Assembly: GCA_963718515.1 (NCBI GenBank)
Contig: OY970354.1
Span: forward strand, 438,808-502,807
From: an uncultured bacterium
Lineage (GTDB): Bacteria; Patescibacteriota; Minisyncoccia; UBA6257; 2-01-FULL-56-20
DNA: 64,000 bases
Direction: 5' to 3'
In this document: positions 5,942-58,415 of the stretch, piece after piece
How positions within the stretch are numbered: the stretch's first letter is position 1
Layout of the letters: the number at the start of each line of letters is the position of its first letter
The notes under the pieces: model-generated
Database searches by the model: none
The model's input: only the letters and a program-made list of their open reading frames with translations
Told to the model about the DNA's origin: nothing
Program-made: the position numbers and the translations under genes

Positions 5942-5971
5942 TTGACAGAGTATAGTAGTTACTATTATAAT
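5942..5971 (+). promoter_or_regulatory. sigma70-like promoter (TTGACA-18-TATAAT)
   Basis: TTGACA at 5942-5947 and TATAAT at 5966-5971. Confidence 0.5.
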
Positions 5972-5977
5972 CGTCTC

Positions 5978-6054
5978 AACTTCCTTGTTCCTTGGGGTGG
6001 AGCGGGGGAGGACCTCCGTGGTTGGCGAAAGCTGGCCGCGGAGATTTTATTTTT
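5978..6054 (+). ncRNA. candidate ~75 nt small RNA (promoter-to-terminator unit), unclassified
   Basis: It follows the promoter at 5942-5971. It ends in a 13 bp hairpin CTCCGTGGTTGGC-GAAA-GCTGGCCGCGGAG (6014-6043) followed by the TTTTATTTTT run. No ORF or start codon with an RBS is present. uvrC starts only at 6092. Confidence 0.35.
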
Positions 6055-6091
6055 GGCATATACTATTAATGATTAAAATTCGATTAAACCC

Positions 6092-10708: not shown

Positions 10709-10734
10709 GCATCCGCGTTTGCTATAATTAACTC

Positions 10735-11502
10735 ATGATAACAACCACTATGGCCTCCAAAAAAATCTATCTTCAGCCGTCGTCGGAAGACCTCGTCCTT
10801 GATAACAACGGCCAGGATAAGCAGTACGTTTTGAAACTTCGCGATCTTCCCACCAACGAAAAGCCGCGCGAGAAACTCGCCAAGTACGGACCATCCGTCC
10901 TTTCCCTTGAGGAACTTTTCGCCATCGTTTTGAACGTAGGCACCAAAAAAGAAGAAGTGCTCAGTATGTCTCGTCGCGTATTAAAAGAATATGGCGATAA
11001 CGCGATCATCAACCAAAAGGATCCCAAGAAAGTGAGTGAGATGCTCGATATCCCGCTTGGCAAGGCATGCCAGATCGTCGCGTGTTTTGAGCTCGGCCGG
11101 CGGTTCTTTAAAGCGCAGGACGGCAAGAAGCCGATCACGATCCGTACCGCCAGCCAGGTGCATACATATCTTAAAGATATGCAGGAATTGCCGAAAGAGC
11201 ATCTGCGCGGCCTCTATCTGGATGCGCATTATCAATTGATCCACGACGAGGTGATCTCGATCGGCACGCTTACGTCGAACATCATCCATCCGCGCGAAGT
11301 GTTCCGCCCCGCGCTCGAGTACTCCGCGTCGGCGCTGATCCTCGCGCACAACCATCCCTCCGGCGTCTCGAAGCCGAGCGATGCGGACATCGCGATCACG
11401 CGCCAGATCGTGGAGGCAGGTAAGATCCTCGGCATCAGCCTGCTTGACCACGTCATCGTTGCCAAAAACAAGTTTGAGAGCGTGCCGGTGGAGTATGCGT
11501 AA
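10735..11502 (+). CDS. radC: RadC-family JAB/MPN domain protein
   Basis: 255 aa with an HhH-like N-terminus (LSLEELFAIVLNVGTKK) and the JAMM motif HNHPSGVSKPSDAD. Confidence 0.9.
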   Translation: MITTTMASKKIYLQPSSEDLVLDNNGQDKQYVLKLRDLPTNEKPREKLAKYGPSVLSLEELFAIVLNVGTKKEEVLSMSRRVLKEYGDNAIINQKDPKKVSEMLDIPLGKACQIVACFELGRRFFKAQDGKKPITIRTASQVHTYLKDMQELPKEHLRGLYLDAHYQLIHDEVISIGTLTSNIIHPREVFRPALEYSASALILAHNHPSGVSKPSDADIAITRQIVEAGKILGISLLDHVIVAKNKFESVPVEYA

Positions 11503-11551
11503 GGGATGGCGGTAACTTTTTCATCCCCCACTTTTTTGCTATAATCTCCCT

Positions 11552-12290
11552 ATGGTTGAGTTCTCGCATTTAACGAAAGCCTATAAAAAGCGGGTGGCGG
11601 TGGATGATTTTACGCTTTCCGTGGATGTGCCGATCTTCGGGTTTTTGGGCCAGAACGGGGCAGGGAAGACGACGATCATGAAGATGATCGTGGGTCTGCT
11701 TACGCCCACGAAGCGGCACGATCACGATCGACGGGGCGATCTCGTCGCATCCGATTTTCAAGAAGAAGATCGGCTATATGCCGGAGACGCCGTATTTTTA
11801 TGAACGCATGACGGGCATGGAATTTTTGCGGTTTTGCGATGAGCTTTTTGAACCGGTGCGCGGTCAGCAGAAAAAATATGAGGACATTCTGAAAAAAGTG
11901 GGCATCTACGGCGCGCGCGATTTTGAGATCAAAACGTATTCCAAGGGCATGCGCCAGCGCCTCGGCTTCGCGCAATCGCTTGTGAACGATCCGGAATATT
12001 TATTTCTCGACGAACCGCTCGACGGCCTCGACCCGATCGGCCGCCGCGAAATGAAGGAGGTGATGCTCGACCTCAAACACGAAGGCCGCAAGATATTTTT
12101 GAACACGCACATCTTGGCCGACGTCGAAGAGATCTGCGACGAAGTGGGGATCATCCATCAGGGAAAATTGCTGTACGCAGGCTCCGTAAAGGCATTCTGT
12201 GCGGGCAAGCCGCTCGAGGAGCGTTTTATGGAGGCCGTGGAAGAACATGAGCGGAAATATGAATCGCACGAAGTTCACCACAAAAAATAG
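11552..12290 (+). CDS. ABC transporter ATP-binding protein (ABC-2 type), one frameshift near 11708
   Basis: Walker A GQNGAGKTT. After LLTPT the frame shifts to SGTITIDGAISSHPIFKKKIGYMPETPYFYERMTG. The signature YSKGMRQRLGFAQSL and Walker B YLFLDEPLDGLD follow. Confidence 0.85.
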
Positions 12291-51547: not shown

Positions 51548-52804
51548 CTACATCCTCAGCCACGCTTTCAATGCTTTCCCTGGCGGCATGATGCCCCTAA
51601 GATAATTCAGTTCCACGAGACGGCTGAATGCCCAGCCGAGCCAGCCGGAAAAGATGAGTGCGCCGAACTTTGCCACTGCCCAATTGTCGCCGATCGGAAT
51701 GATATACGTGTAGATCGTCAGGCTGTTCGGAATATAGATGCTTGGCCTCGCCACGTACGCGGGCATCTCCGCCTTTTTTATTTCTTCCAAAAGATTATGC
51801 GCAGCCACCTGCGCCTCTGTGACGGCCGCATGCACGACAGCCGGCACCGGCTTTTGGGTCTTTGGATTCACGAAGCAGACGTTATCGCCGATACCATAGA
51901 TCATTGGCGCGAGCTTAAGATCCGGCGTCCCCGGCAGGCACTCCATACCGCTTTGCGTTACCGCTTTTCCGCGTGGCTCTTTTTGGAGCGGAGCAGAAGC
52001 GAGCACATCCGGCGTTTTTGTGCCGCCGGTCCAGACGAATACATCAAAAGGAATATTCATCGCGTTTGGATTCACCGCATCGCCTACGGAGATTCCGTTT
52101 TCCGAAACGGAAGATATTTTCATTCCCGCCATGACTTTAATATTCAGCTTCGCCAGACGTCGCATGGCGATCGCAACGACACTCAGATCGAATCCCGGCA
52201 GGAGCGTGGGCATCGCCTCCACGATAGAGACGGAAACGTGCAGGTTGGGATTTTTTCTCTCTTCCACGTTTGCCCACAAGCGGAGTTCCGCCGCGAGCTC
52301 AATGCCATTCGGTCCGCCGCCGCCGGCGACGATTGCCACGGCGCCGCCCTTTGCGAACGCCGCCGCCGCCGCAGTGCGTACCTCCACCGCGCTCTCGATC
52401 GTTTTAAGCTGGAGCGCGTGCTCTTTTAGGCCCGGAATCCCAAAATAGTTCGTTTCGGATCCGAGCGCGATCACAAGATAATCCGCGTTAATGGTGCGGC
52501 CATCCTTCAATACGATCCTGCCGGTCGTGACGTCGGGTGATGTTATTTCGCCCTCGACGAAAGTTATCGGAAAGCCTTTTACCAATTCGGTGATATCATA
52601 CGAGCACGTATTCTCGTGCTCAGGTTCCGGCCGTGCGGCCACTTTGTAGAGCAAGGGAGTGAATGTGTGGCAGTCGTTTCGGTCGATGAGCGTCACTTGG
52701 TATTTTTCGAGCAACTTTACGCGCTCCAATCCTTTTGCGATATCCATCGCCGCGCGCAGGCCGCCAAACCCGGCGCCGAGGATCACGACATTCTTTTTAT
52801 CCAT
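51548..52804 (-). CDS. ndh: type II NADH dehydrogenase-like FAD-dependent pyridine nucleotide-disulfide oxidoreductase
   Basis: The ORF runs to 52813, but TATAAT (52817-52812) overlaps that ATG. The second ATG (52804) is 7 nt after the -10 box and gives MDKKNVVILGAGFGG (GxGxxG). A second dinucleotide fold, VAIVAGGGGPNGIE, is present. Confidence 0.85.
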   Translation of the reverse strand: MDKKNVVILGAGFGGLRAAMDIAKGLERVKLLEKYQVTLIDRNDCHTFTPLLYKVAARPEPEHENTCSYDITELVKGFPITFVEGEITSPDVTTGRIVLKDGRTINADYLVIALGSETNYFGIPGLKEHALQLKTIESAVEVRTAAAAAFAKGGAVAIVAGGGGPNGIELAAELRLWANVEERKNPNLHVSVSIVEAMPTLLPGFDLSVVAIAMRRLAKLNIKVMAGMKISSVSENGISVGDAVNPNAMNIPFDVFVWTGGTKTPDVLASAPLQKEPRGKAVTQSGMECLPGTPDLKLAPMIYGIGDNVCFVNPKTQKPVPAVVHAAVTEAQVAAHNLLEEIKKAEMPAYVARPSIYIPNSLTIYTYIIPIGDNWAVAKFGALIFSGWLGWAFSRLVELNYLRGIMPPGKALKAWLRM

Positions 52805-52823
52805 ATGCTTCATTATACCCTAC

Positions 52824-52851
52824 TTGACAGGAATAATGCCTATGCTATAAT
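52824..52851 (+). promoter_or_regulatory. strong promoter TTGACA-16-(TG)cTATAAT
   Basis: TTGACA at 52824-52829, TG at 52843-52844 and TATAAT at 52846-52851. The extended -10 TGCTATAAT is the same as at the rnpB promoter. Confidence 0.6.
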
Positions 52852-52857
52852 GCACAA

Positions 52858-53170
52858 AGAACGCAGGCACATAGTTTCACTATCCTAGTGTCGCTCGTGC
52901 CACTGGTTCCTACTAGTTTTACATCTGTCCGGTTGGACGTCTGCAGAGAGAGCTCTGCCATGGATGGCTTGTCTGGAAAGCCGCTCAGGACGCTTCAATG
53001 AGTGTATGCCTCGCCGGGTGCGTACTAGGTGGAGAAAGGGCGCTTCACCGAACTTTGCGAAGGCCCGCAGGGACTGGAGGCTTCTCATTGCTCCATCTGA
53101 TGATATGGTCCAGATATCGGATCGTTGGTCCCAAACGCGAGGGCAGTCACTGTTGTGGCTGCCCTTTCTT
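52858..53170 (+). ncRNA. candidate ~310 nt structured RNA, unclassified
   Basis: It is bounded by the 52824-52851 promoter and the terminator GGGCAG-tcactgttgtgg-CTGCCC+TTTCTT (53143-53170). No credible ORF or RBS is present. Hairpins include GCAGAG-agag-CTCTGC (52943-52958), GGCT...AGCC, GGTG...CACC, GGGCgCTTC...GAAGGCCC and TGGAG...CTCCA. There is also long-range pairing between CCTAGTGT (52885) and GTACTAGG (53022). Confidence 0.45.
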
Positions 53171-53171
53171 A

Positions 53172-53200
53172 TTGACATATTTTTATATTAAGGATATAAT
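53172..53200 (+). promoter_or_regulatory. consensus promoter TTGACA-17-TATAAT
   Basis: TTGACA at 53172-53177 and TATAAT at 53195-53200, upstream of the ORF starting at 53247. Confidence 0.6.
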
Positions 53201-53246
53201 CTTTCTAGGACATTGTATCGCGTTCATACGCGGAAAAGGGGGTTAT

Positions 53247-53852
53247 ATGGGGAAGAAGATAAGGAAGATCGGATTGGTTTCAAGGTATGGGATGGGATAT
53301 TTTGACATCGTTCCAGCAATGAAGAGTTGGAATGCCCTCCTGGCCATCGTTCCCGGGCTCATCGGATTCAAACCGTCGAAAGAGTGTTTGCAGGCATGGG
53401 GCAATGCAGACAAGCTTTTCAAGCGCTTTGAAAAGAAGACCGGCGCCCATAACCTCGTCGATGCGGCGGCGAAGATATATAGAACAGTCAGCGCGGCGCT
53501 CGATCGGGAAATGGGTATTTTCGTCAAAGGTTATTTTTCGGTGGCCCTGGGAAGTTTCATGGCATTACCGATCAATCCCGATCCCATCGCTATAGATCTT
53601 CGGTCGGGCATTCTGCCGGATCTTCGCGCTCTTGCAGTAATTGCTTCGCGAGGTCACATTTCCATGGATGAATTACGCCAGGCGGCAGAACTCATCAAGA
53701 AAGTGCACAAGCCTCTCATTGCCTTGATCGTCCTTCACATGAATTACTGCTCCTGTCTTCGGCGGCACGATGTGTGTCGCGAATACATCGAGCGGTACGT
53801 ATCTACACACAACAGCCCCCGACGCGCCAAGCGTCGGGGGCTTTCACTATTC
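53247..53852 (+). CDS. hypothetical protein (end uncertain; reads in frame into pgk in this assembly)
   Basis: MGKKIRKIGLVSRYGMGYFDIV... with AGGGGG upstream of the ATG. There is no stop in frame before pgk. A +1 register gives TAA at 53850-53852, just after the hairpin CCCCCGACGC-gccaa-GCGTCGGGGG (53816-53840). A run-length error in C5 or G5 is suspected. Confidence 0.45.
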
Positions 53853-53894: not shown

Positions 53895-55013
53895 ATGATT
53901 CATTACCTTAGCGCCGCGCGTCCCAAGGCGCTTACGGGAACGGCTCTGCTTCGTCTTGATTTCAATACCAAAGACGACTGGCGGATGCGCGCGGTTATGC
54001 CCACGATTAAATTATTATTAAAGGTTTCTCGACATATTGTCATTATTAGTCACCGCGGCCGGCCGAACGGGTTTGATAAGAAATTCAGCCTCAAGGGCGA
54101 TGCGGCAAAATTGTCGGGATTACTTGGCGGGAAAAAGGTGACTTTCATAAATCATTTCCGCTTCGCGGAGATCAAAAAGCAGGTCGCCGCCGCCCCGCGT
54201 GGTTCGATATTCTTGTTGGATAATTTAAGATTTTTGCCGGGCGAAGAAAAAAATGATCCGGCGCTCGCAAAACAACTTGCGTCGCTCGCGGATTTTTACG
54301 TGAACGACGCTTTTGCCGTCTCGCATCGCGCGAATGCATCCGTCGTCGCCATCACAAAGTTTTTGCCGAACTACGCGGGCATCGAACTCGAGCGCGAGAT
54401 TATATCCCTCTCGAAGGCGATACTCGCACCCAAGCATCCGGTGGTGCTCATACTCGGCGGCGCAAAAGCATCGGATAAGTTGGGTGTCATCACTTATTTT
54501 AAAAATAAAGCGGATCGCTTTTTACTTGGCGGAGGGTGCGCTAACACGATCCTTTGGCTTGGCGGTATGGATGTAAAGAAGTCTGTTAAGGACGGCGATC
54601 CGAAAGAACTTCCCGTACTGAAGAAGATAGCTAAATATAAAAGTGTGGTGCTACCCACGGATTTTGTATGGGGCACCGTTGCGGGCGATACTGCAAAAAA
54701 TACTAAAATATTGGATGTCGGCCCGAGTACCATCCGAGCATTCAATAAAGATATCGCGGCGGCACGCACCATCATTTGGAGCGGTCCACTCGGCCTTATT
54801 GAAAAAAAGCAGTACGCTAAGGCGAGCGTCGCCATCGCGCGCGCGATCGGCCGCAATCGCCGCGCATTTTCCGTTTCCGGCGGGGGAGAGACGGTGATGT
54901 TCCTCAAACAGTATGGGCTCGATAAAAAATTCAGCTTTATCTCAACGGGCGGTGGTGCGATGGTGGACTTTCTCGCCGGGAAAAAATTGCCGGGGATAGA
55001 GGCCCTGAAATAA
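53895..55013 (+). CDS. pgk: phosphoglycerate kinase
   Basis: The start was set at ATG 53895 (MIHYLSAARPKALTGTALLRLDFN). Motifs are VIISHRGRP, FLLDNLRF, VNDAFAVSHR, WSGPLG and STGGGA. The length of 372 aa is normal for PGK. Confidence 0.9.
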   Translation: MIHYLSAARPKALTGTALLRLDFNTKDDWRMRAVMPTIKLLLKVSRHIVIISHRGRPNGFDKKFSLKGDAAKLSGLLGGKKVTFINHFRFAEIKKQVAAAPRGSIFLLDNLRFLPGEEKNDPALAKQLASLADFYVNDAFAVSHRANASVVAITKFLPNYAGIELEREIISLSKAILAPKHPVVLILGGAKASDKLGVITYFKNKADRFLLGGGCANTILWLGGMDVKKSVKDGDPKELPVLKKIAKYKSVVLPTDFVWGTVAGDTAKNTKILDVGPSTIRAFNKDIAAARTIIWSGPLGLIEKKQYAKASVAIARAIGRNRRAFSVSGGGETVMFLKQYGLDKKFSFISTGGGAMVDFLAGKKLPGIEALK

Positions 55014-57995: not shown

Positions 57996-58415
57996 GCTGG
58001 CAATCCAGACGGTCGCTGTGGTGGTGCGCGCTCCAAAAGCGCCGCGCCGCGCAGAGGAAAGTCCGGACACTCTCCGTGGTTGTGTAATGCGAAAGCGTCG
58101 CGCGACACGGATAAAATAGTAGCGGCTAACAGCCGCCGTTCGCAAGAATAGAGGTGCGAGCAGTGACGTCCACGTTGGAAACGACGTGGAGGACCCCATC
58201 CCGAGCTTGATGGTCTAATTCCGCCATAGGGACAAAAAAGCGGAAGTGAAACGGCAAAATCCTTACTGAGTGCAAGGCCGTGCTCTTCGTCCATCCGCAA
58301 GGATAGCCGGAGAGAGTGCCGCACCGAGCCCGCGAGCAATCAAGGGCCCAGATAAATGATCGTCCGTTCCGCGCAAGCGGAGCCGACAAAATCCGGCTTA
58401 TGTATTGCCAGCAAT
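57996..58415 (+). ncRNA. rnpB: RNase P RNA (bacterial type A-like)
   Basis: It has the conserved P4 5' strand GAGGAAAGTCCGGAC (58052-58066) and the 3' partner ACAAAATCCGGCTTATG (58386-58402). P1 pairs GCTGGCAAT (57996-58004) with ATTGCCAGC (58404-58412). The overlapping ORFs 57903-58199(-), 57983-58339(-) and 58126-58389(-) are spurious. Confidence 0.9.

Follow-up and report, generated by a model that had tools for sequence, protein, structure and literature searches.

Trans-encoded bacterial sRNA genes stand alone in intergenic regions, each with its own sigma-70 promoter and Rho-independent terminator, and are often strain-specific. The RNA biology of the Patescibacteria is, to our knowledge, almost unexplored, and the literature on Patescibacteria non-coding RNAs contained nothing matching the orphan transcription unit described here, which lies between the divergently oriented gene ndh and the operon formed by an ORFan gene (here named X) and pgk, in a 64,000-nucleotide stretch of DNA from an uncultured bacterium (hereafter the window). 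This unit resembles sRNA genes in that it is autonomous, intergenic and non-coding, carries a 5′ hairpin as well as a terminator hairpin, and is restricted in its distribution. It differs from them in that its length of ~315 nt is at the long end for sRNAs, and in that it is a candidate known from sequence alone. With its own promoter, a non-coding body, a Rho-independent terminator and an intergenic position, it nevertheless has an architecture like that of an ordinary stand-alone bacterial sRNA gene.

Other systems bear comparison with the unit to differing extents. The gene for RNase P RNA (rnpB), which is encoded in the same window, shares with it an identical TGCTATAAT extended –10 box, a good –35 hexamer and a comparable length, but rnpB is universal and has a conserved structure, whereas the unit is confined to one strain and its body folds like shuffled sequence. 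The ORFan cassettes of related genomes (loci L082, L062 and L090) occupy the same slot, are of similar size and have their own promoter, and the terminator of the L090 cassette abuts the X promoter; these cassettes, however, hold ORFs with start codons (with a Shine-Dalgarno sequence in L090), while the unit has no credible ORF and no similarity to them. Finally, attenuator and riboswitch leaders are likewise long, structured-looking stretches that close with an intrinsic terminator ahead of a metabolic operon, but in the present case a full conserved promoter intervenes, and we found neither an aptamer family nor a significant antiterminator. More generally, the unit lacks the defining features that we tested for housekeeping RNAs, riboswitch and T-box leaders, type III antitoxin or array RNAs, and small protein genes.

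Transcription signals and coding potential

The initial annotation of this interval had described a near-consensus promoter (P1), an intrinsic terminator downstream of it and a separate consensus promoter for the next gene (P2), which together would delimit an autonomous promoter-to-terminator unit. All of these elements are present as described (Table 1), and P1 and the terminator support the autonomy of the unit. Perfect TTGACA-N16–18-TATAAT promoters occur three times in the 64-kb window compared to an expected 0.00, and the terminator folds with a free energy of –22.6 kcal mol–1 (z = –5.99), with 0/200 shuffles equally stable; P1 and the terminator are thus far beyond chance, as judged by site counts and by folding against shuffles, respectively. 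That P1 fires and that the terminator works is something we infer from their consensus motifs, with the activity of P1 being made likely by its TGCTATAAT box, which appears to be a working promoter signature in this genome. We note that the resulting geometry, in which the unit stands between two perfect promoters arranged in tandem, is mildly unusual.

Table 1. Features of the ndh–X intergenic region and of related loci. Positions are those of the window unless a locus is named.
Feature	Position	Strand	Description
P1	52824..52851	+	TTGACA 52824–52829, 16-nt spacer ending in TGC, TATAAT 52846–52851; 12/12 consensus matches with TG extension (TGCTATAAT)
Predicted non-coding transcript, ~315 nt	52858..53172	+	5′ end inferred 7 nt past the –10 box; 3′ end in the U-tract
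5′-proximal hairpin GGCAC...GUGCC	52866..52901	+	Most stable local element of the body, in MFE and centroid folds
Intrinsic terminator	53139..53175	+	Stem 53139–53166, 12 bp with 4-nt loop, then TTTCTTATT (UUUCUU) / UUUCUUAUU
Extra segment relative to X-bearing relatives, 348 bp	52830..53177	+	From intergenic alignment with L094, L001, L088 and L091 and gap table; equally 52824–53171
ndh	51548–52813	–	Probable true start ATG 52804 (MDKKN...)
Probable –10 box of ndh (TATAAT)	52812..52817	–	Read from sequence; putative promoter function
P2	53172..53200	+	TTGACA-17-TATAAT, 12/12; orthologous to X promoters of L094, L001, L088 and L091
Gene X	53247..53816	+	~175-aa ORFan family; ATG 53247; context, outside the unit
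X relatives	L001 5376–5906(–); L088 3359–3931(–); L090–L096		
rnpB (RNase P RNA, bacterial class A, RF00010)	57997–58415	+	76.9 bits; gathering score 100

The coding potential of the interval was assessed using a codon log-odds model trained on the long ORFs of the window. In all six frames, the unit body scores between –0.27 and –0.69 per codon, which is indistinguishable from rnpB (–0.19 to –0.41), compared to +0.31 ± 0.17 for in-frame 282-nt chunks of genes (5th percentile +0.02). The frame that is open into X likewise has negative log-odds upstream of the X ATG, including when sliding windows are used. Sense start codons with a Shine-Dalgarno-like motif are confined to the one frame that stays open across the terminator and P2, such that the sense strand of the unit has no Shine-Dalgarno-preceded ORF ending before the terminator, and the largest sense ORF (75 aa, 52964–53191) terminates past it. 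On the opposite strand, a 97-aa antisense ORF is predicted by the gene caller in an identical Logan contig, and has no homologue but itself among 5.8 billion proteins; searches of Pfam, PADLOC and PHROGs also gave no significant match for the unit. No ORF was found that has a start codon and ribosome binding site, ends before the terminator and shows either coding-like codon usage or a homologue, the search of the large protein databases having covered the 97-aa antisense ORF. We note that stop codons are slightly depleted in the unit (19 vs 25 ± 4, p ~0.08), with one sense frame having a single stop in 106 codons. The interval, in line with its description in the initial annotation as non-coding, does not look protein-coding, as judged from its codon log-odds and from ORFs lacking homologues.

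Among the candidates considered and rejected was a decayed duplicate of X, as the X-family HMM gave no match in the unit when searched against six-frame pieces of the window; a weak nhmmer alignment of the unit to the start of X in L090 was obtained at E = 0.64, together with an apparent peptide resemblance by eye. A replication origin was similarly rejected, with neither a DnaA-box cluster nor a GC-skew switch being found.

A strain-specific insertion between ndh and gene X

On the ndh side of the unit, the annotated start codon (ATG 52813) overlaps the gene's own putative –10 box, and a CATTATA motif is kept at the ndh-proximal position in L001, L083, L094 and others. The true start of ndh is thus probably ATG 52804, in agreement with the 100% identical database protein P0001 (418 aa), which begins MDKKN, and a start at this position would probably make the ndh mRNA leaderless or nearly so. 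Several genes of the window are apparently leaderless, with TATAAT followed by 6–7 nt and then ATG (10720–10737, 11537–11554 and, on the minus strand, 52804–52817).

On the other side, P2, its spacer and the start of the 5′ UTR (AGGACATT) align with the X promoters of the relatives: the window has TTGACA-TATTTTTATATTAAGGA-TATAAT...AGGACATT, and L094 has TTGACT-TATCCTTATAATAAGGA-TATAAT...AGGACATT. Judging from this alignment, the conserved X promoter corresponds in the window to P2; overall it is unusually well conserved, as TTGACW-TATyyTTATAATAAGGA-TATAAT (the spacer of P2 being TATyyTTATAATAAGGA-like). The X family itself is small and fast-evolving, with a shared W..L motif, a PD motif and a C-terminal CSC motif, and has no match in Pfam, PADLOC or PHROGs; it belongs to one Paceibacterota subclade, in which the gene always directly precedes pgk. 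An exhaustive phmmer search with X retrieved four remote homologues (P0122–P0125, E = 2e-6 to 7e-5), and an X-family HMM built without the window sequence matches the X of the window at 2.6e-22.

We note a further peculiarity of X in the window, which is that it has no in-frame stop codon. Its ORF passes through a terminator-like hairpin at 53814–53842 (CAGCCCCCGACGCGCCAAGCGTCGGGGGCT followed by TTTCACTATT) and continues into pgk (ATG 53895), to position 55013, and in the identical Logan contig the gene caller predicts a single 573-aa "PGK". In the relatives, a stop codon closes X (173–190 aa) ahead of a terminator, and a separate Shine-Dalgarno sequence serves pgk. The read-through from X into pgk is either a stop-codon loss creating an X-PGK fusion, or a sequencing error.

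The nearest genome representatives by Ndh protein are Paceibacterota MAGs, and the divergent ndh/pgk pair is conserved across the Patescibacteria. Of the 13 relatives' loci tabulated, 10 have a start-to-start gap of 28–94 nt for this pair, compared to 1091 nt in the window's strain (represented by locus L081) in the same table. In the X-bearing subclade, the Ndh of which is ~69–70% identical to that of the window, the gap between ndh and X is ~70–95 nt in the four relatives with ndh (L001, L088/L089 and L094, with the same spacing across L094–L096), compared to 443 nt in the window. From this contrast, and from the aligned flanks on either side, it follows that the window carries exactly 348 extra bp between the ndh core promoter and P2. 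Both junctions of this segment are flanked by TTGACA, because of which its boundary can be written in either of two ways (Table 1).

The initial annotation had proposed a homology search in related genomes, and had made its interpretation of the unit as a stable RNA dependent on the presence of the interval in close relatives. We find the unit to be absent at the syntenic site in all relatives examined, which span Ndh identities from 78% down to 34%, the nearest being at 78, 75, 72, 70 and 69%. In the closest relative available (L082, Ndh 78% identical), the ndh/pgk slot holds two unrelated small ORFan genes, in L086 (75%) it holds ~190 nt of unrelated spacer, and in L083, L084 and L087 (72%) it is empty. 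The DNA that could be searched comprised 64 kb of this genome and flanks of 3–10 kb from the relatives, and an nhmmer search with the unit matched only L081 (a Logan contig from ERR11630394), with 100% identity both over the unit and in Ndh. On the basis of this identity, L081 is the same strain as the window, and the window assembly and Logan ERR11630394 may share the same reads. Across 80 ndh-adjoining genome loci and 16 further loci (>1 Mb in total), nhmmer and tblastx recovered only this identical strain, with no significant tblastx match. Exact 20–25-nt segments of the unit had zero matches in JGI metagenome contigs and viral contigs, in scans that demand exact matches and would therefore find close relatives only, and blastn of the unit against phage and plasmid collections returned no match.

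The slot between ndh and pgk (or between the T4SS coupling-protein gene and X) is itself a recurrent site for lineage-specific small cassettes across the Patescibacteria, as exemplified by L090 (2610–2920), L082 (228–759), L062 and L003, with gaps of 378–1091 nt in a minority of genomes vs 28–94 nt in most. L090 and L091–L093 lack ndh, and there X comes directly after the T4SS coupling-protein gene.

RNA families, folding and the –10 box common to P1 and rnpB

The Rfam scan suggested in the initial annotation, performed with cmscan on positions 52700–53300, returned no family at E ≤ 10, other than a 16-nt chance match to c4-a1b1, and at gathering thresholds there was likewise no Rfam match for the unit. 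ARAGORN found no tmRNA in the window, the unit matched none of the covariance models for the housekeeping RNAs (RNase P, tmRNA, SRP and 6S), and no riboswitch, T-box or leader family matched the unit region at E ≤ 10. We note that rnpB in this window scores below its gathering score (Table 1), such that it is missed by a standard Rfam scan and is seen only in E-value mode, which illustrates the lowered sensitivity of Rfam models in this lineage. Tandem repeats were also sought, using TRF, with none found in the unit at a score ≥ 30 and only short direct repeats of 9–12 nt, in two copies each, being present. A type III toxin-antitoxin RNA and a TIGR or CRISPR-like array were therefore rejected, TIGR arrays on account of the lack of repeats, and X moreover has no PADLOC match.

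As a single sequence of the unit is known, the case for structure in its body stands on folding in comparison to shuffled controls. The full unit folds with z = –2.59, and this is because of the terminator: the 280-nt body without it has z = –0.51, with 54/200 shuffles folding equally well, and the reverse complement of the body has z = –0.58. The fold of the body is thus not significantly below that of the shuffled controls. A perfect long-range complement of 9 nt, which pairs 53033–53041 with 53161–53169, is equalled or beaten in 9.4% of shuffles. The multiple hairpins and the long-range pairing to which the initial annotation had pointed are therefore not above chance, and the 5′-proximal hairpin (Table 1) is conserved nowhere among the loci examined. 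A base-pairing sRNA needs little global structure, and the flat z-score of the body is compatible with such an RNA, and equally with functionless DNA.

The initial annotation had also drawn attention to the identity of the –10 box of P1 with that of rnpB. A copy of the box does precede rnpB, the promoter of which is TTGTCA-17-TGCTATAAT. The nonamer is, however, found six times in the 64-kb window (at 10720, 11537, 35946, 48649, 52843 and 57981) vs 0.25 expected, in 6/6 cases on the plus strand, and four of the six copies lie upstream of protein ORFs, at distances of 6, 6, 55 and 59 nt. The box is thus not specific to RNA genes, and from its distribution the –10 box common to P1 and rnpB reads as a generic strong –10 of this genome. 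Beyond the 9-nt box, comparison of the unit with rnpB revealed no similarity. A good –35 hexamer is present only at the P1 and rnpB copies, and the four copies before protein genes resemble extended –10 promoters without a –35.

Origin and nature of the unit

The explanation that we favor, with modest confidence, is that of an autonomous, strain-specific, non-coding transcription unit that was acquired by one insertion. According to this explanation, 348 bp have been inserted, in this strain of a member of the Paceibacterota, into the divergent promoter region that separates ndh from the X-pgk operon and is otherwise tight and conserved. The consensus sigma-70 promoter P1 of the insert, with its extended –10, would drive a ~315-nt transcript without coding potential, and the strong terminator would end transcription from P1 a few bases before P2, such that X and pgk would be kept under their own promoter. 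The product would most likely be a young, lineage-restricted, sRNA-like non-coding transcript, which could be either a trans-acting regulator or an RNA without selected function. If transcribed, the unit would join a very small number of candidate regulatory RNAs in the Patescibacteria, and would illustrate cleanly how one insertion into a conserved divergent promoter region can add an entire RNA gene.

Several other explanations account for part of these observations. It is unlikely, if worth serious consideration, that what remains here is a former small ORFan protein gene, with a coding sequence that has decayed or is too unusual to be recognized and a promoter and terminator that survive. 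Such genes do occupy the slot in relatives, with an 82-aa and an 87-aa gene in L082, a ~90-aa ORF (read from sequence) in L062 and a 55-aa ORF in L090, the latter having a Shine-Dalgarno sequence as well as a terminator that immediately precedes the X promoter; a gene of 80–100 aa would match the unit in size, and the mild depletion of stop codons and the nearly open sense frame noted above point in the same direction. Against this, codon log-odds are negative in every frame and in the sliding windows of the open frame, no Shine-Dalgarno-preceded start gives an ORF ending before the terminator, the tblastx results are insignificant, the X-family HMM, Pfam, PHROGs and PADLOC find nothing in the unit, and the unit has no similarity to that of L090. 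We consider it quite improbable that the segment was left behind by a small non-autonomous mobile element, or by illegitimate recombination, at the –35 of X, with the transcription signals as incidental cargo. An insertion of precisely 348 bp bordered on each side by TTGACA would fit a 6-bp target duplication, there are hairpins near both ends, and the slot is a recurrent insertion site in the clade; however, the segment lacks terminal inverted repeats, neither the 64-kb window nor any collection searched yielded a further copy, and there is no transposase or recombinase nearby. Furthermore, both TTGACA hexamers are –35 boxes, such that their presence at both junctions could be either coincidence or target duplication. 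Very doubtful in our view is a "promoter-hijacking" module, or recent birth of an sRNA gene, in which the insert landed on the –35 hexamer of P2 and duplicated TTGACA. Were this the case, the upstream TTGACA and the extended –10 of the insert would form a perfect new promoter, the downstream TTGACA would regenerate the host promoter behind the terminator of the insert, and a strongly expressed new RNA would result without X or pgk being disturbed.

We see little chance that the unit acts in cis on X-pgk as a leader or attenuator, from which signal-dependent read-through would add regulated expression on top of that from P2. The unit does have the same orientation as X-pgk, with its terminator 80 nt upstream of the start of X, and a 9-nt segment within a hairpin loop (53033–53041) is the exact complement of the terminator's 3′ arm and U-tract, with which it could pair alternatively. 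This pairing, however, besides being of a kind readily matched in shuffles (see above), would be kinetically unfavorable for antitermination, as it involves the 3′ arm of the terminator; the complete, conserved P2 lies between the terminator and X, with the relatives apparently expressing X from the P2 counterpart alone; no riboswitch, T-box or leader family was found; and the unit is absent in all relatives. Barely credible, finally, is the interpretation put forward in the initial annotation, that of an abundant stable RNA of unknown class, here taken to mean a conserved and structured RNA of a new class on a par with RNase P, tmRNA, 6S or SRP RNA. It has in its favor the perfect promoter with the –10 nonamer of rnpB and the strong terminator, as well as the reduced sensitivity of Rfam models in a lineage where rnpB itself falls below the gathering threshold. 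Yet no relative has the unit at the syntenic site, the >1 Mb of fetched loci lack it, its body has a z-score of –0.5, it matches no Rfam family at E ≤ 10, no tmRNA and nothing of rnpB beyond the generic 9-nt box, and the exact-segment scans of metagenome and viral contigs were empty. A perfect promoter and terminator in this genome do not by themselves indicate a conserved stable RNA, and the most that can be claimed for the unit is a small RNA that is young and an orphan, as opposed to a stable RNA of a new class.

We note, as a separate observation, that the window holds a second orphan unit, at 5942–6056 on the plus strand, just upstream of uvrC (6092), with no Rfam match at E ≤ 1 and no extended similarity to the unit between ndh and X. 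It consists of a perfect TTGACA-18-TATAAT promoter followed by ~80 nt with two strong hairpins, the second of which is a terminator followed by AUUUUAUUUUU. With a folding free energy of –42.5 kcal mol–1 (z = –5.6), this second unit has, unlike that at 52858–53172, a highly significant structure, and it may be either a small RNA or the leader of uvrC.
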